Below are positions 1,486 through 19,155 of a stretch of 64,000 nucleotides of DNA, in pieces. This DNA is from an uncultured Bacilli bacterium (lineage in GTDB: Bacteria > Bacillota_I > Bacilli_A > RF39 > UBA660): the NCBI GenBank assembly GCA_934140575.1, contig CAKPBJ010000005.1, positions 19,385 to 83,384 on the forward strand, read 5' to 3'. Position 1 is the stretch's first letter, and every line of letters starts with the position of its first letter. The notes below the pieces were generated by a model. It saw only the letters and a program-made list of their open reading frames with translations. It was not told where the DNA came from and did no database searches. The position numbers and the translations under genes were made by a program.

Positions 1486-3957
1486 ATGGATAGATTAGAA
1501 AAAAACAATATAGTAAAAGAGGTACAGGATTCGTTTTTAGAGTATTCAATGAGTGTTATTGTTGCTCGTGCATTACCTGACCTTAGAGATGGTTTAAAGC
1601 CTGTTCATAGACGTATTTTATATTCTATGTATGAATCAGGTTATACACCAGATAAACCTCATAAAAAGAGTGCTAGAATAGTTGGAGATGTTATGGGTAA
1701 ATATCATCCTCATGGTGATTCTTCAATTTATGAGGCAATGGTAAGAATGGCCCAAGATTTTTCTTACAGATATATGCTTGTTGATGGTCATGGTAATTTT
1801 GGTAATATTGAAGGTTATGGTGCAGCTGCAATGCGTTATACTGAATCAAGACTTTCTAAAATATCACTTGAATTATTAAGAAATATTAATAAAGATACAG
1901 TTAATTTTACTCCTAATTTTGATGAGAGTGAAAGAGAGCCAGAAGTTTTACCTTCAAGATTTCCTAATATATTAGTTAATGGTACGACAGGTATAGCTGT
2001 TGGTATGGCAACTAATATTCCTCCTCACAATTTGAGTGAAGTAATTGATGGTTGTGTTGCTTATATTGAAAATCCTGATATTGATTTAGATGGATTAATG
2101 AAATATATTAAGGGGCCTGATTTTCCTACAGGAGCCATTATTCTCGGAAATAGTGGAATAAGAAAAGCTTATGAAACTGGTAGAGGAACAATAACTATTA
2201 GAAGTAAGGCTACAATTGAGGAAAATAATGGTAAACAACAAATTATAATTGATGAAGTTCCTTATGGAGTTAATACTTTAGAGTTAAAGAATAAAGTTGC
2301 TGAATTGGTTCATAATAAGACAATCGAAGGTATTGCTGATTATCATTCAGACTTAAAAAATGGTATAAAAATTACGATAACATTAAAAAGAGATGCAAAT
2401 GCTCAAGTAGTATTAAACAAATTATATAAACATACTGCTTTTCAAACATCATATGGAATTATATTTTTGATGCTTGATCAAGGTGTTCCAAAAACTCTTG
2501 GTTTAAAGGATATAATAGTTAAATATATTGATTATCAAAAAGAAGTTATTATTAGAAGAACTAAATTTGATTTAGATGTTGCTGAAAAAAGAGTACATAT
2601 ATTAGAAGGGTTAAAAATAGCTTTAGATAATATTGATGCTGTTATTAAAGTAATTAGAGGTTCTAAATCAGATGAAGAGGCTAGAAATGGATTGATAAAT
2701 GGTTTTTCATTAACAGAAATTCAAGCAAATGCAATTTTGGAGATGAGATTGCGTCGTTTAACTGGTTTAGAGCGTGAAAAGATAGAAAATGAACTAAATG
2801 ACTTACTAAAGACAATTGCTGAGTTAAAAGCCATTTTAGCTAGTGATGAGAGGATATTAGAGGTTATTAAGAATGAATTATTAGAAATTAAACAAAAATT
2901 TGGCGATGAGAGACGTACTAATATTGATATGACTGCAATTGAATATATTGAAGATGAATCTCTTATACCAGAAGAAGATATTATTATTAATTTGACTAAT
3001 AATGGTTATATTAAGAGATTAAGAAGTGATACTTATAAAACTCAAAATAGAGGTGGAGTTGGTATTAAGGGTATGTCAACAAATGAGGAAGATTTTGTTG
3101 AAAAAATACTTTCTATGAGTACACACGATTGGATTTTATTCTTCTCTAATAAGGGTAGAGTTTATAGAATGAAGGGTTACGAAGTACCTGAATTTTCTAG
3201 ACAATCTAAAGGATTACCAATTATAAATTTATTGCCACTGGAAAAAGATGAGAACATTAGTTCGATATTGAGTGTTAAACAGGATGATGATTTTACAAAA
3301 TATTTAATATTTGCTACTAAGAATGGTATTGTTAAACGTACTCCGATTGAAGAGTTTGACAGTATTAGAAAAGGTGGTAAAATTGCTATTGTTTTAAAGG
3401 AAAATGATGAATTAATAAGTGTAAAAAAGACTTGTGGAAAAAATGAAATTGTAATCGGAGCAAGTAATGGACGTATGGTTCGATTTGATGAGAATGAAGT
3501 TAGATCTATGGGTAGAAGTAGTTCTGGTGTTAAAGGTATTGATCTTGATGGTGCTATAGTTGTTGGTGCGGAGGTTGTTGAACCTGGACATATGGTTCTT
3601 ATAGTTACTGAGAATGGTTATGGAAAACAAACTTTGATTGATGAATATAGATTAACTCATAGAGGCAGTAAAGGAGTAAAGGCTTTAAATATCACAGAAA
3701 AGAATGGTACAATGGTTTCTTTAAAAACTCTAATGCCAAATGCTCATCTTGATTTAATGATTATGACTGATAATGGTATTATTATTAAACTTCCTTTAGA
3801 GCAAGTTTCTACTTTGAAAAGAGCTACACAAGGTGTTAGATTAATGAATTTAAAAGAAGGTCAAAAAGTAACTACAGTAGCTTTAGTTGAAAAAGAAGTT
3901 GAAGAAGAAGATAATTCTGAGAATAATTCAGAAGAGTCAAGTATAGAAGAAGCATAA
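1486..3957 (+). CDS. gyrA: DNA gyrase subunit A
   Basis: 823 aa. Has [21 protein letters not shown] and AAMRYTE (catalytic Tyr) motifs and a C-terminal beta-pinwheel. GGAGG RBS upstream. Confidence 0.98.
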
Positions 3958-3972
3958 GGCTTCTTTTTTTTT
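3948..3972 (+). terminator. Intrinsic terminator after gyrA
   Basis: Hairpin agaagc/gcttct overlaps the stop codon and is followed by a T8 run. Confidence 0.6.
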
Positions 3973-3991
3973 AATTGTTTAAAATTAAAAT

Positions 3992-4007
3992 TATTTCCCG
4001 GGAAATA
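3992..4007. promoter_or_regulatory. Noc-binding site (NBS), perfect 16-mer TATTTCCCGGGAAATA
   Basis: Exact match to the published NBS palindrome. It sits inside a 26-bp perfect palindrome AAAATTATTTCCCGGGAAATAATTTT (3987-4012). Confidence 0.75.
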
Positions 4008-4135
4008 ATTTTATGTTTAATTTAAGCAATTTACATTAGCATTTGTACATCTTTAATAATTTAAATTGCTTAAAATGCATTTTGTTTAAACCTATACTTT
4101 CCACACATTTTGTTATTTTATGTATGATGTATAAT

Positions 4136-4151
4136 AGTTTCACGTGGAACA
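4136..4151. promoter_or_regulatory. parS-like site (14/16 to palindromic consensus)
   Basis: aGTTTCACGTGgAACA. It is one mismatch from the B. subtilis-type TGTTCCACGTGAAACA read on the other strand. A degenerate DnaA-like CTTTCCACA lies at 4097-4105. Confidence 0.5.
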
Positions 4152-4230
4152 TTTATATTTTTTCACAAATATAGTTACAAATAAATCTAGTAAATTTACA
4201 TATCAATAGGATTTGGGAAATATCTAAAAT

Positions 4231-4246
4231 TATTTCCCGGGAAATA
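4231..4246. promoter_or_regulatory. Noc-binding site (NBS), perfect 16-mer
   Basis: TATTTCCCGGGAAATA inside the same 26-bp palindrome (4226-4251). It lies 19 bp upstream of the parS at 4266. Confidence 0.75.
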
Positions 4247-4265
4247 ATTTTAAAATTAAATGTTA

Positions 4266-4292
4266 TGTTTCACGTGAAACATTCTTTCCACA
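4266..4292. promoter_or_regulatory. Perfect parS (4266-4281) plus degenerate DnaA box (4284-4292)
   Basis: TGTTTCACGTGAAACA exact. It is followed by CTTTCCACA (7/9 to TTATCCACA). Confidence 0.75.
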
Positions 4293-4405
4293 GAAAAAGC
4301 AGAAAATATAAAATTAATTAATTATATAAACTTTTTTTGTTGTAAAATTTAAATAAAGTTTATATTTTATTGGCGTTGAAATAATTATTATGTTTAAATT
4401 TATAA

Positions 4406-4421
4406 TATTTTCCCGGAAATA
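4406..4421. promoter_or_regulatory. Degenerate NBS (14/16)
   Basis: TATTTTCCCGGAAATA. It occupies the same position in repeat unit 1 as the perfect NBS at 4815 does in unit 2, and lies 20 bp upstream of the parS at 4442. Confidence 0.45.
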
Positions 4422-4441
4422 AAAGTTTAATAAATTGGTAA

Positions 4442-4466
4442 TGTTTCACGTGAAACATTATCCACA
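4442..4466. promoter_or_regulatory. Perfect parS (4442-4457) directly abutting perfect DnaA box (4458-4466)
   Basis: TGTTTCACGTGAAACA then TTATCCACA with a 0-bp gap. Confidence 0.8.
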
Positions 4467-4678
4467 AGAAAAGTTGAAATACTATGATAATATAAATTTT
4501 CAACAAAAAAAGTGATAATTAGCATAAAATATTATATTTTATAGAATGCAGATACTTATATAACTTATAATAGTATTGATTCTTATATTTTTCTTAAATA
4601 TCAACAAATATTGAGTGTTATATCTAATTTTATTACTCTTTTTTATGTTGTCTATATAAAAAATATAATTTAAATTTA

Positions 4679-4703
4679 TGTTTCACGTGAAACGTTATCC
4701 ACA
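4679..4703. promoter_or_regulatory. parS 15/16 (4679-4694) abutting perfect DnaA box (4695-4703)
   Basis: TGTTTCACGTGAAACg then TTATCCACA. Confidence 0.75.
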
Positions 4704-4814
4704 GAAAAAGTAGAAAATATAAAATTAATTAATTATATAAACATTTTTTTGTAAAATTTATATATAGTTAATATTTTATTGGTGTTTAAATAATTATTAT
4801 ATTTAAATTTATAA

Positions 4815-4830
4815 TATTTCCCGGGAAATA
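4815..4830. promoter_or_regulatory. Noc-binding site (NBS), perfect 16-mer
   Basis: TATTTCCCGGGAAATA, 20 bp upstream of the parS at 4851. Confidence 0.75.
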
Positions 4831-4850
4831 AATGTTTAATAAATTAGTAA

Positions 4851-4876
4851 TGTTTCACGTGAAACTATTATCCACA
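4851..4876. promoter_or_regulatory. parS 15/16 (4851-4866) plus perfect DnaA box (4868-4876)
   Basis: TGTTTCACGTGAAACt, one base, then TTATCCACA. Confidence 0.75.
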
Positions 4877-5094
4877 AGAAAAGTTGAAATACTATGATAA
4901 AATAAATTTTCAACAAAAAAAGCGATAATTAGCATAAAATATTATTGTTTTTATAGAATGCAGATACTTATATATCTTATAATAGTAATAATTCTCTAAT
5001 TTTTCTTAAATATCAACAAATATTGAGTGTTATATCTAATTTTATTACTCTTTTTTATTTATATTTTCTATATAAAAAATATAATTTAAATTTA

Positions 5095-5121
5095 TGTTTC
5101 ACGTGAAACAATTTATCCACA
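5095..5121. promoter_or_regulatory. Perfect parS (5095-5110) plus perfect DnaA box (5113-5121)
   Basis: TGTTTCACGTGAAACA, 2 nt, then TTATCCACA. Followed by a very AT-rich stretch. Confidence 0.8.
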
Positions 5122-5215
5122 AAAAATGATAATAATTGAATTTAAAGAAAAAAAGTCACAAATATTATTAATAATTATATTTATATTTACTTTTTCAGCA
5201 GTTTATAATACAATA

Positions 5216-5296
5216 TGTATGTGCAATGAAAGTGATTGAAACAGGTCAGGATTGGAAAATAGCAGCCTTAAGGTCCTCCTTTCATGTGCACTTTTT
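5216..5296 (+). ncRNA. ffs: Small (4.5S-type) signal recognition particle RNA
   Basis: Contains CAGGTCAGGattGGAAaatAGCAGCCttAAGG, which matches the conserved SRP domain IV (CAGGUCAGGuccGGAAggaAGCAGCCAAGG in E. coli 4.5S). The closing stem is gtgcaatgaaag/ctttcatgtgcac, followed by a T-run. A TATAAT lies at 5204-5209. Confidence 0.8.
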
Positions 5297-5311
5297 ATTT
5301 TGGAGGAATTT

Positions 5312-5761
5312 ATGAATTTAAAATATATGGAAGAAGCGTTTAATTGTGCTAAAGTTGCTTATAATCTTGATGAGGTGCCAATTGGGGCTGTAATTGTAAA
5401 AAATAATGTTATTATTGGTCGTGGTTATAATAAAAAAGAAAAAAATATGTCTGTTATTGCTCATGCTGAAATTATCGCTATAGAGGAAGCAGCAAAATAT
5501 TTAAATAATTGGAGGTTAGATGGATGTGATATTTATGTAACTCTTGATCCTTGTCCTATGTGTGCAAGTGCAATTAAGCAATCACGAATAAGAAATGTGT
5601 ATTCTGCATGTAATAATTCATTTATAAATAACGAAAAAATTTTAAAATTAATTTTTGAAAGTGATAATACAAATCCTAGTGTCAATTATGCTTCTAATTT
5701 AAATGTTGAAAAATCACAAAAAATGATGAATAGTTTTTTTAAAAAGCAAAGAAATGATTAA
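5312..5761 (+). CDS. tadA: tRNA-specific adenosine deaminase
   Basis: HAE and PCPMC zinc motifs of CDA-fold deaminases. GGAGG lies 6 nt upstream of the ATG at 5312. The ORF-track start at 5252 would overlap the SRP RNA. Confidence 0.9.
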   Translation: MNLKYMEEAFNCAKVAYNLDEVPIGAVIVKNNVIIGRGYNKKEKNMSVIAHAEIIAIEEAAKYLNNWRLDGCDIYVTLDPCPMCASAIKQSRIRNVYSACNNSFINNEKILKLIFESDNTNPSVNYASNLNVEKSQKMMNSFFKKQRND

Positions 5762-5801: not shown

Positions 5802-7574
5802 ATGAATGTGTATCATGCTTTATATCGAAAATATAGACCGAAAGACTTTGATTCTGTTGTTGGGCAGGATTCTATTATTAAAACTTTAAAAAATTCAATA
5901 ATTCATAAAAATTTTTCACATGCATATATGTTCTTTGGTCCTAGAGGTACTGGAAAAACTTCAGTATCGAAAATTTTTGCTAGAAATATTAATTGTTTAA
6001 ATCCAAAAAATGGTATTGCTTGTGAGGAATGCGACGCATGTAAAGTTTCCTTTTCTAAAGATTGCGTTGATATTATTGAAATTGATGCCGCATCGAATAA
6101 TGGTGTTGATGAAATACGTGATTTAAAGAATAAAATTTCTCTTGTTCCAAGTGAATTAAGATACAAAGTTTATATAATTGATGAAGTTCATATGTTATCT
6201 ATTGGAGCATTTAATGCGCTATTGAAGACTTTAGAGGAGCCGCCGGAACATGCAATATTTATATTAGCTACTACTGATCCTCAAAAAGTTCCTGAAACTA
6301 TTGTTTCTAGATGTCAATGTTTTTCGTTTAAACGTATATCAGATAATGCAATAGTCGATAGATTGAGATATGTTTGTAATTGTGAGAATATTGAAATTGA
6401 TGATAATGTATTAGAAAAAATTTCAATTTTATCTGATGGTGGCTTACGTGACTCGTTAGGAATGCTTGATAAATTAGTTTCTTATTCTGATCATAAAATT
6501 ACTATTGAAGATTTTAATGATGTAAATGGTGTTGTTTCGGATGAAGATATTTCTAAATTTTTAGATTATATTTTAACTGGAAATATTGTTGAAATTTTAA
6601 ATTTTATTAAATATGTAAACGATAGTGGAAAAAATTTAATTCAAGTTATTACTCAATTAATAGTTTTTTCTAGAAATATGGTTGTGGATTATTATATTTC
6701 TAAAAATGATATTAAATATTCAGTAGATTTATTACAAAATTTTCTAAATTTAATTAACGAAAAAATGTTCGATATAAAAAAGAGTGGTAATACTAAAATT
6801 TATATTGAAATGTTTTTGTTGAAATTTGTAGATGATTATATTTTAAATACTAATTCTACAATGATAAAAGTTAGTAATGATGTGAATAATCATATAAATA
6901 AGACTAATAATGGAATAATGAAGTCAAAAATAAAATCTGATAATAATTCTAATCCTATTTTTGATAAAACTGTAGGCTTAAATTCAGATTTTAATGAGAA
7001 AAAAATTGATAACTCTAATGTTTCTTTAAATGATAATGGTAATAATTATATGGATGATAAAAATGATGATTATGATAATAATGATTTAGTTTCAATACCT
7101 AAAATTACTAATATTGATGAAATTATGAAGGTAAGAGTTAATAATACTTTAGCGAAGGCTGATAAAAATTTATTAAGATTGGAAATGAAAAATTTTACTT
7201 TACTTAATGATTATACTTTTGATCAAGAAATTGGTTATTTAGTATGTGCAATTTTAGATGCTAAATTACGTGTTGTTAGTAATGATTGTCTTGTTTTAAG
7301 TTATGATTATGATTCTAATGCAAGACAAAATCTGAATAATCTTGAAAAAATAACAGATGTTTATAATAAAATTACTAATTCTAATAAAAATATTGCGATT
7401 ATTACTGACGAATATTGGGAAAAGGTTAAGAATGAATATATTTTAAATATAAAAAATAATGTAAAATATGAGGTTGTTGAAGAACCTGAACCTATATTTG
7501 AAGAATTAAAAAATAATGATATAATAACAAGTAGTGCAGTAGAACTATTTGGTGATATTGTGGAAGTTGAATAG
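5802..7574 (+). CDS. dnaX: DNA polymerase III subunit tau (gamma/tau)
   Basis: YRPKDF, GPRGTGKTS Walker A, a C-x2-C-x-C zinc module, DEVHML and SRC motifs. The central linker is Asn-rich and low complexity. Confidence 0.95.
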   Translation: MNVYHALYRKYRPKDFDSVVGQDSIIKTLKNSIIHKNFSHAYMFFGPRGTGKTSVSKIFARNINCLNPKNGIACEECDACKVSFSKDCVDIIEIDAASNNGVDEIRDLKNKISLVPSELRYKVYIIDEVHMLSIGAFNALLKTLEEPPEHAIFILATTDPQKVPETIVSRCQCFSFKRISDNAIVDRLRYVCNCENIEIDDNVLEKISILSDGGLRDSLGMLDKLVSYSDHKITIEDFNDVNGVVSDEDISKFLDYILTGNIVEILNFIKYVNDSGKNLIQVITQLIVFSRNMVVDYYISKNDIKYSVDLLQNFLNLINEKMFDIKKSGNTKIYIEMFLLKFVDDYILNTNSTMIKVSNDVNNHINKTNNGIMKSKIKSDNNSNPIFDKTVGLNSDFNEKKIDNSNVSLNDNGNNYMDDKNDDYDNNDLVSIPKITNIDEIMKVRVNNTLAKADKNLLRLEMKNFTLLNDYTFDQEIGYLVCAILDAKLRVVSNDCLVLSYDYDSNARQNLNNLEKITDVYNKITNSNKNIAIITDEYWEKVKNEYILNIKNNVKYEVVEEPEPIFEELKNNDIITSSAVELFGDIVEVE

Positions 7575-18396: not shown

Positions 18397-19155
18397 ATGT
18401 TTATAGATACACATTGTCATTTATCAAATGAAGATTATGATGATATTGATTTAGTTATTAAGGAAAATAGAGAGGCATTGATTGATAAAATTATTATTTC
18501 TGGGTGTACAAAGGAAAGTATTATTGAGTCTATTGAGTTATCTAAAAAGTATTCTGATGTTTATATTACTATAGGTTTTCATCCAAGTGAGGCTTCTATT
18601 ACATCTTTAAATGATTTGAATTTTCTTGAAGAGATGATTTCTTATAATGATAAGGTTGTTGGAATTGGTGAGATTGGTCTTGATTATCATTATGGTAAGG
18701 ATGATATTGATTTACAAAAAAAACTATTTAGAGCTCAAATGAAATTAGCTGAAAAATATAAGTTACCTGTGGTTATTCATAGTAGAGATGCTACTCTTGA
18801 TACAATTAATATTTTGAAAGAGTTTCCTAATGTTATTGGTGATATACATTGTTTTAGTGGTAGTATTGAAACTGCTGATATTTATATATCTATGGGTTAT
18901 AAGTTGGGGATAGGTGGAGTCTTAACTTTTAAAAATAGTAATCTTTATAAAATAGTTGAACATGTTGGACTTGATAATATTTTACTTGAAACTGATAGCC
19001 CTTATTTAACTCCTGTTCCATATAGAGGGAAAAAGAATAGTTCAAAGTACATTCCTTTAATTGCTTCTAAAATATCTGAAATATTAAATGTTAGTGTTGA
19101 AGAAGTGTCCAAAAAGACGCTTAAAAATACATATAGCTTGTTTGACTTGAAATAG
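18397..19155 (+). CDS. tatD: TatD-family metal-dependent DNase/hydrolase (YabD)
   Basis: FIDTHCHL, GEIGLDY and VIHSRDA motifs. Confidence 0.9.
   Translation: MFIDTHCHLSNEDYDDIDLVIKENREALIDKIIISGCTKESIIESIELSKKYSDVYITIGFHPSEASITSLNDLNFLEEMISYNDKVVGIGEIGLDYHYGKDDIDLQKKLFRAQMKLAEKYKLPVVIHSRDATLDTINILKEFPNVIGDIHCFSGSIETADIYISMGYKLGIGGVLTFKNSNLYKIVEHVGLDNILLETDSPYLTPVPYRGKKNSSKYIPLIASKISEILNVSVEEVSKKTLKNTYSLFDLK

Follow-up and report, generated by a model that had tools for sequence, protein, structure and literature searches.

What do the loading sites of two different chromosome-binding clamps do together in one and the same spacer? ParB and Noc are the two founding CTP-gated DNA clamps, and they have been regarded as orthogonal, the former serving segregation at parS and the latter serving division control at scattered Noc-binding sites (NBS). 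The locus that raises this question lies in a stretch of 64 kb (28% G+C) of contig CAKPBJ010000005.1, from an uncultured Bacilli bacterium; this whole stretch is referred to as the window, and all window coordinates are positions within it. All four NBS and all six parS of the window were found in the spacer of 1.25 kb that separates gyrA from ffs and tadA (3958-5214). We consider it rather probable that this spacer is the main centromere, and a composite one, in which loading sites for two paralogous CTP-dependent clamps are interdigitated.

The published NBS is the 16-mer TATTTCCCGGGAAATA, each half-site of which departs from that of parS at two positions (PMC7383237). The window contains three perfect copies of it, at 3992, 4231 and 4815, and a copy with two mismatches at 4406 (TATTTTCCCGGAAATA). 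The motif scan confirmed in this respect the original prediction, made from the sequence of the window, which had reported the same three perfect sites, the 14/16 copy, the identity of the 16-mer and the location of two copies within a 26-bp palindrome. Four NBS in 64 kb (with up to 3 mismatches allowed) are to be compared with 0.44 expected, and this number was never attained by shuffles. The parS consensus TGTTTCACGTGAAACA is perfect at 4266, 4442 and 5095, has one mismatch at 4679 and 4851 and two mismatches at 4136, against an expectation of 0.26; the only other parS-like matches in the window are at 19139 and 55415, both with three mismatches. No further comparable NBS or parS was detected in the rest of the 64 kb or in 21 kb around the noc-parAB genes, and among the approximately 85 kb read of this species all 4 NBS fall in one 1.25-kb spacer. 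The sequence CCCGGG occurs three times in the whole window, every time within a perfect NBS.

Three of the NBS are followed by a parS, with gaps of 19 bp (4247-4265), 20 bp (4422-4441) and 20 bp (4831-4850) from edge to edge, as had been noted previously. Measured from centre to centre, the same gaps correspond to 35, 36 and 36 bp, which is about 3.4 helical turns and not the roughly two turns that had been proposed. The pairs 4406/4442 and 4815/4851 are repeat copies of one another in a 409-bp tandem repeat, and therefore only two of the three pairs are independent. Two stretches, 3987-4012 and 4226-4251, consist of the 26-bp perfect palindrome AAAATTATTTCCCGGGAAATAATTTT. The sites and the genes that border them are the following.

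1486 to 3957, plus strand: gyrA, the left syntenic anchor, an open reading frame of 823 aa (Pfam DNA_topoisoIV and DNA_gyraseA_C on the identical protein).
3945 to 3967, plus strand: intrinsic terminator of gyrA, a terminator-like stem-loop followed by a T run; the site cluster starts right after it.
3987 to 4012, no strand: NBS 1, a perfect 16-mer (3992-4007) inside the 26-bp palindrome, invariant in 9 strains.
4136 to 4151, no strand: degenerate parS, AGTTTCACGTGGAACA, with 2 mismatches, kept in all strains.
4226 to 4251, no strand: NBS 2, a perfect 16-mer (4231-4246) in the 26-bp palindrome, outside the tandem repeat and with a parS 19 bp downstream.
4256 to 5126, plus strand: 409-bp tandem repeat, 2.1 copies, 91% identical, with two parS and one NBS per unit.
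4266 to 4281, no strand: perfect parS, from the motif scan.
4406 to 4421, no strand: NBS 3, with a parS 20 bp downstream; its sequence has decayed in this strain (TATTTTCCCGGAAATA).
4442 to 4457, no strand: perfect parS, from the motif scan, with a DnaA box directly 3'.
4679 to 4694, no strand: parS with 1 mismatch at the outermost base and no NBS partner, with a DnaA box directly 3'.
4815 to 4830, no strand: NBS 4, perfect, corresponding to NBS 3 in the other repeat copy, with a parS 20 bp downstream.
4851 to 4866, no strand: parS with 1 mismatch at the outermost base, from the motif scan.
5095 to 5110, no strand: perfect parS, from the motif scan, the last site in the cluster.
5215 to 5300, plus strand: ffs (small signal recognition particle RNA), the right edge of the spacer (Rfam RF00169, 55.5 bits as compared to a gathering score of 40).
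5312 to 5761, plus strand: tadA, a deaminase of 149 aa, the right syntenic anchor (dCMP_cyt_deam_1 at the equivalent position in the strain contigs L001-L009).
5802 to 7574, plus strand: dnaX, without an embedded NBS in this species.

Downstream of the spacer the genes are tadA, dnaX, ybaB, recR and holB; dnaA lies about 7.5 kb upstream of the site cluster, and the parS copies are within about 15 kb of oriC. The flanks of NBS 1 and NBS 2 (3978-4013 and 4225-4260) form a 36-nt inverted repeat that is 94% complementary, and the 211-bp segment between its arms holds the degenerate parS at 4136. At 4215-4222 there is one more NBS half-site (GGGAAATA). Each of the 409-bp units also contains a 7-bp inverted repeat, GTTGAAA...TTTCAAC, with arms about 18 bp apart (4472-4503 and 4882-4913), which could be another candidate protein-binding site.

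The proteins expected to load on these sites are encoded on the other side of the origin. The noc-parAB region, which was reached by walking across oriC via TrmE (L010 and L011), has the gene order trmE-mnmG-rsmG-noc-like (430 aa)-parA (265 aa)-parB (303 aa), that is the gidB-noc-soj-spo0J order of Bacillus. The two ParB-family paralogs are adjacent and lie 14-17 kb from gyrA, across oriC from the array. The identical rsmG-noc-parA-parB order was observed in a sister species (L134; best match at 83% nucleotide identity), which is not among the loci listed in the NBS-parS scan described below, and noc-like, parA and parB are also adjacent in a divergent homolog (L132), on a short contig. The best structural-sequence matches of the 430-aa protein are the Noc entries 7NFU (229 bits), 7NG0 and 7OL9, as compared to 178 bits for the best ParB; it contains the Pfam domains ParB_N and HTH_ParB, aligns with the Noc structures over residues 4-216, and has CTP-pocket motifs, GERR(Y) and ENLQR, that are invariant across 38 homologs. 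The 303-aa protein carries the N-terminal LGRGL motif and matches best Spo0J (6SDK, 208 bits), as compared to 176 bits for the best Noc.

The recognition region of the 430-aa protein reads GKSQSAVANKLRLLSLP...ISERHAR, which corresponds to Q173-K179-S184-R201 in Caulobacter ParB numbering (Jalal 2020), and that of the 303-aa ParB reads GKSRSHITNMLGLLNLP...TMGHAR, which corresponds to R173-M179-N184-G201. Q173, R201 and a single lysine, at either 179 or 184, are enough to switch the specificity to NBS, and R173 and G201 are invariant in ParB (Jalal 2020, PMC7383237). The search for parB and noc paralogs and for their specificity residues, which the original prediction had proposed, resulted in two adjacent genes whose residues match one site type each; therefore, the simplest reading is that of one protein per site type. 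Judging from these residues, NBS would be bound by the 430-aa Noc-like protein and parS by the 303-aa ParB.

The Noc-like protein differs from known Noc proteins at its N-terminus. Its gene (L010:14003-15295) has an in-frame TGA two codons upstream of the ATG, and the protein starts about 22-24 residues later than Noc from Geobacillus or B. subtilis, residue 4 aligning with residue 23 of 7NFU and with residue 25 of 7OL9. In Noc, a 10-residue amphipathic membrane-targeting helix and helix α2 are needed for membrane binding and nucleoid occlusion (PMC8429893). The late start and the upstream in-frame stop therefore mean that the Noc-like protein has neither the membrane-targeting helix nor helix α2; the former appears to have been lost, or never to have been acquired. 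Since this helix is absent, membrane tethering as in Bacillus is unsupported, and with it the suggestion that the centromere region is tethered to the membrane through Noc.

An AlphaFold model of the Noc-like protein was built on 38 homologs. It predicts that the folded N-terminal and DNA-binding domains (residues 5-208) are followed by a disordered linker of about 170 aa (209-380), with a short helix at 295-301, and then by a folded C-terminal domain (385-428). Short linker motifs recur in homologs (including P0241-P0280), namely F/I-NYGEI-D (NYGEID), D-LDSLL-NI (LDSLLNI), F-I-TPAE (FITPAE) and DYF; they look like protein-interaction motifs, and LDSLLNI coincides with the predicted short helix. 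The LDSLL part bears a faint likeness to the GLxxLL ParA-interaction motif of the ParB N-terminus. A plain homolog search with the Noc-like protein gave near-identical sequences only. An exhaustive search of 1.84 billion cluster representatives, of which the 150 best 50%-identity representatives were examined, revealed a large and uniform subfamily: in these 150 the median length is 491 aa and 14-20 residues (median 16) are found ahead of PNRFQPR. At least 111 of the 113 subfamily representatives that could be parsed carry the signature QK[N/S/T/A]R.

Conservation of the arrangement was analysed in one genome per species, for a total of 185,579 species, which were scanned for the NBS core ATTTCCCGGGAAAT followed by 6-36 nt and then by GTTTCACGTGAAAC. 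In at least 120 species-representative loci, an NBS and a parS are separated by 6-36 bp. The 120 loci listed, to which the counts below refer, are all from uncultured low-GC metagenome-assembled genomes labelled Bacilli, Erysipelotrichaceae, Tenericutes, 'Mycoplasma sp.', Clostridium sp. CAG:710 and similar; judging from names such as CAG:710, the clade would be RF39-like. All of them carry genes of the window block, and about 100 clearly show gyrA or tadA beside the sites; a tblastn search with the window proteins found GyrA in 102, TadA in 100 and DnaX in 92. The shared neighbourhood is gyrB-gyrA-[sites]-tadA-(sites)-dnaX-ybaB-recR. The identity of GyrA to that of the window ranges from 51 to 91% (median 72%), and the spacer sequences diverge between species, with both palindromes retained. 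No match to the NBS-parS pattern was found in 2.9 million viral contigs. Strict alternating arrays are frequent among the matches listed, such as these:

L105: 13 NBS and 12 parS, at 36-37/46 bp, in strict alternation.
L072: 13 NBS and 12 parS, at 49/30 bp, in strict alternation.
L071: 9 NBS and 9 parS, at 40/35 bp, in strict alternation.
L047: alternating array, at 49/35 bp.
L013: alternating array, at 26/36 bp.

It was also considered whether NBS and parS keep a constant order in the gyrA to tadA direction, and no such orientation was seen in the listed loci. In 17 species a lone perfect NBS core is present inside dnaX (18 sites: L016:3556, L031:2299, L033:6618, L035:2445, L059:4046 and 13 more), about 1.7-1.8 kb from the array, in a poorly conserved linker around residues 354-426, where it codes for IISREI. 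This suggests DNA-level selection for NBS within the gene. In some loci another lone NBS recurs about 5.3 kb past that in dnaX.

The distances between the two site types were analysed by counting each distinct NBS-parS distance once per locus, from centre to centre. They range from 20 to more than 50 bp, with peaks at 25-27, 35-37 and 45-49 bp and troughs at 29-30 and 41-44 bp; the 35-36 bp of the window are within the commonest mode. The hard-wired module of the original prediction is thus upheld in its pairing, which is kept in at least 120 species at one locus, and not in its constant spacing, which goes from 20 to more than 50 bp with modes at about 26, 36 and 47 bp. By a Rayleigh test the period is 10.5-11.5 bp and the phase about 4.7 bp, which corresponds to about half a turn, and the periodicity is present in both orientations relative to gyrA-tadA. 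With p-values that treat related species as independent and are indicative only, the signal was p~1e-5 for 111 clusters and p~1e-3 for 43 clusters after merging similar spacers, and it was weakly visible (p~0.005) beyond the range imposed by the search (51-130 bp). For pairs of like sites the phase of the distance is close to 0 (p~0.008), and array periods cluster near 62-63, 73-76 and 83-84 bp. Taken at face value, and as an indication only, this would place the ParB sites all on one side of the helix and the Noc-like sites on the opposite side.

Within the species, nine metagenome contigs with identical GyrA (L001-L009) were compared, and the layout is common to all nine. Variable positions amount to 8.0% of the spacer, to 1 of 80 in parS and to 0 of 48 in NBS 1, 2 and 4, and all four variable NBS positions sit in NBS 3. 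The spacer is about 243 bp shorter in L001 and L008, and the copy number of the tandem repeat differs among strains. Decayed copies of both palindromes (in L012, L017, L047, L100, L103 and others, and at 4406-4421 of the window) show mostly transitions at the central CpG, the variants observed being CCCAGG, CCTGGG, CATGTG and CACATG. Such transitions are those expected from deamination of methylated cytosine, a hint that CpG or CCGG is methylated in these lineages.

In the mechanism that we propose for the composite centromere, ParB (303 aa, R173/G201 type) would nucleate on parS and the Noc-derived paralog (430 aa, Q173/K179/R201 type) would nucleate on NBS. The site types alternate at short, helically phased distances, so that both proteins would load within a few hundred bp; both would then spread over common origin-proximal DNA, giving rise to a mixed nucleoprotein complex. 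Co-loading of the two proteins and their functional coupling are what we infer, the latter from conservation and phasing. Since the membrane-targeting helix is absent and the linker of about 170 aa has conserved short motifs, the contribution of the Noc-like protein at the centromere is probably a protein-protein or condensate function, rather than classical membrane-mediated nucleoid occlusion. We suggest more tentatively that Noc in this clade may be a second centromere clamp instead of a membrane-tethering occlusion factor, that the phased array may set one protein on each face of the helix in a single mixed partition complex, and that the linker motifs may provide a partner interaction that ParB does not have. 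The arrangement could also preserve an ancestral state of Noc, after the duplication of ParB and before the gain of the membrane helix and the dispersal of NBS.

Several observations weigh against the composite centromere. The noc-like gene and the array have been seen directly together in one species, the present one, and the assignment of each protein to its site comes from residues characterised in other species. Residue 184 of the Noc-like protein is a serine and not a lysine, and the protein scores 288.8 bits with the NCBIfam Noc profile TIGR04285, below the cut-off of 315 (the ParB paralog reaches 242.2); the inserted linker confines the match of the Noc-like protein to profile positions 1-209 of 255. 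As regards the sites, NBS 1 (3992) has no parS at 19-20 bp, its nearest neighbour being the degenerate parS at 4136, and the parS at 4136, 4679 and 5095 have no NBS partner. Given the lone NBS in dnaX, the Noc-like protein is not confined to the array. NBS 3 is perfect in L001, L003 and L008, and the other strains carry three different mutant alleles; strain L006 is without NBS 2, its downstream sites being 26 bp closer, which fits the loss of the palindrome. Single NBS sites are therefore dispensable, although the set of them is maintained. Finally, regular spacing inside an array arises from tandem-repeat expansion without any selection, the phasing signal becomes weaker under aggressive clustering, and the related species behind its p-values were counted as independent.

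The main alternative explanation, which we judge unlikely, is that the two site types share the spacer neutrally. Both proteins require sites near the origin, and long non-coding stretches such as the gyrA-tadA spacer are few in these compact AT-rich genomes; the two proteins would act independently, ParB in segregation and the Noc-like protein in origin marking or in occlusion of some form, with an interleaving devoid of function. A duplicated parS would become an NBS via two substitutions per half-site, and repeat expansion would then spread the mixed units. In fact, the arrays are tandem repeats whose copy number is polymorphic between strains, the spacing varies among species, NBS 3 is decayed and NBS 2 deleted in some strains, and unpartnered parS and NBS exist, as well as the lone NBS in dnaX. 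However, juxtaposition at 20-50 bp is kept in at least 120 species, with GyrA down to 51% identical and spacers that have been turned over, and strict alternation is kept over 25 sites in both L105 and L072. Moreover, the distances are trimodal with a helical period in both orientations, and the phase, which neutral drift should blur, differs between the two kinds of pair, like sites being in register and unlike sites out of it. The original prediction had named a single paralog, lack of conservation and an unrelated dispersed repeat as outcomes that would speak against it; what we found is two paralogs, a pairing conserved among related genomes, and palindromes that do not form part of such a repeat.

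Could the two proteins oppose each other instead of building a common complex? Noc-like dimers on NBS would in this case confine the sliding ParB-CTP clamps as roadblocks do, or vice versa, with the effect of a high ParB density in the array and of shielding ffs, tadA and dnaX from spreading. DNA-bound proteins are able to block ParB sliding in vitro, the alternating layout sets a tightly bound paralog beside each loading site, and essential genes are located immediately on both sides. We find this improbable, considering that several parS of the window are turned outward, no NBS separating them from the neighbouring genes, and that helical phasing is unnecessary for blocking. Furthermore, in the Noc mechanism the clamp leaves its site after CTP binding (PMC8429893); the CTP-bound Noc-like protein is expected to do the same and would therefore be a poor static roadblock.

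The chance is very small that the CCCGGG palindrome resembles NBS by accident and serves some unrelated factor, for example a restriction-modification system or a transcriptional regulator of ffs/tadA. CCCGGG is a common restriction site, and the decay variants, mostly CpG transitions, suggest cytosine methylation. However, the full NBS of 14-16 bp is kept across the clade, and not CCCGGG alone; the site is identical to the experimental consensus of B. subtilis and S. aureus (PMC7383237, PMC5540599), and a protein with matching recognition residues is encoded. NBS as an operator was dropped as a candidate, promoter-like matches in the spacer not being above chance. Least probable of all, to the point of being negligible, is the single protein of dual specificity put forward in the original prediction, which would bind both palindromes and make the array simply a denser centromere: the site types differ at two positions per half-site only, but there are two adjacent paralogs with two discrete residue signatures, the specificity of such proteins is exquisite and mutational paths bypass dual-specificity intermediates (Jalal 2020, PMC7383237), and the motifs are discrete across the clade, with no hybrid NBS/parS half-site (GTTTCACGGGAAAT), as a heterodimer would need, in the 120 loci listed.

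The spacer of the window also contains four perfect DnaA boxes (TTATCCACA), all on the plus strand and each 0-2 bp 3' of a parS:

4458 to 4466, plus strand: DnaA box.
4695 to 4703, plus strand: DnaA box.
4868 to 4876, plus strand: DnaA box.
5113 to 5121, plus strand: DnaA box.

A DnaA box beside parS was found in 11 of the 120 related loci among the matches listed. For this reason the boxes are treated as a lineage-specific extra and not as a component of the NBS-parS module. The canonical oriC flanks in L001 (the rnpA-dnaA and dnaA-dnaN spacers) contain one perfect DnaA box and six with one mismatch. The boxes beside parS may represent a DnaA-box cluster or a titration site fused to the centromere. 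In the same origin region, a ComK-family gene (152 aa, L001:6375-6833) is located between dnaN and recF, where Bacillus has yaaA/S4-like, and it is kept in this position in at least 24 related loci.

How does this locus compare to known systems? The F plasmid centromere sopC consists of tandem 43-bp repeats with one SopB site each, that is one site type and one protein, in variable copy number. Here too, tandem short units each carry a palindromic site for a ParB-family protein, but two paralogs have their sites in each unit, and the array lies on the chromosome. With the ParABS centromeres the locus shares the Firmicute parS consensus, in several copies within about 15 kb of oriC, and the presence of ParA and of a ParB with the N-terminal LGRGL and R173/G201. 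In contrast to these centromeres, in which parS are spread over genes, parS are packed here in a single intergenic tandem array and alternate at phased distances with the sites of a second paralog.

The resemblance to the Noc-NBS system of B. subtilis and S. aureus is close as regards the identical palindrome of 14-16 bp with its core, the location of the ParB paralog gene between rsmG (gidB) and parA-parB, and the presence of Q173, K179, R201 and the GERR and ENLQR pocket motifs. The protein of this clade is different in that it has neither the 10-aa amphipathic helix nor helix α2, contains the disordered linker of about 170 aa before the C-terminal domain (430 aa as compared to about 283), has no lysine at residue 184 and scores under the NCBIfam Noc cut-off. 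In B. subtilis and S. aureus, NBS are dispersed along the half to two-thirds of the chromosome nearest the origin (PMC5540599), whereas the sites here, in the approximately 85 kb read, are in one origin-proximal spacer and interleaved with parS. Noc of S. aureus also regulates replication initiation, with dispersed sites (41 loci), membrane association and no reported link to parS, and this is a precedent for an origin-related role of Noc beyond division-site selection (PMC5540599).

As the original prediction supposed, no description of interleaved NBS-parS arrays was found in the full-text literature; the search brought up nothing beyond the known work on Bacillus and Staphylococcus and an engineered tool for two-colour labelling. 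This tool likewise exploits the orthogonality of both protein-site pairs in one cell, but it is artificial and uses two site arrays at separate loci, not a natural interleaved array. NBS, Noc, parS and ParB were already known individually. The present locus departs from them in that the site types are interleaved and helically phased, that NBS are concentrated at the centromere, and that the Noc subfamily has no membrane helix and bears a linker.

A natural and deeply conserved array that places both types of loading site 20-50 bp apart, with helical phasing, leads to ask whether paralogous clamps co-operate, collide or share spreading zones. It also leads to ask what is the role of a Noc without the membrane helix, and along which path Noc diverged from ParB. 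The natural arrays of differing spacing, together with the large family of Noc variants with a disordered linker, offer ready material for testing these questions, and the answers would bear on chromosome segregation in abundant uncultured gut bacteria of humans and animals.

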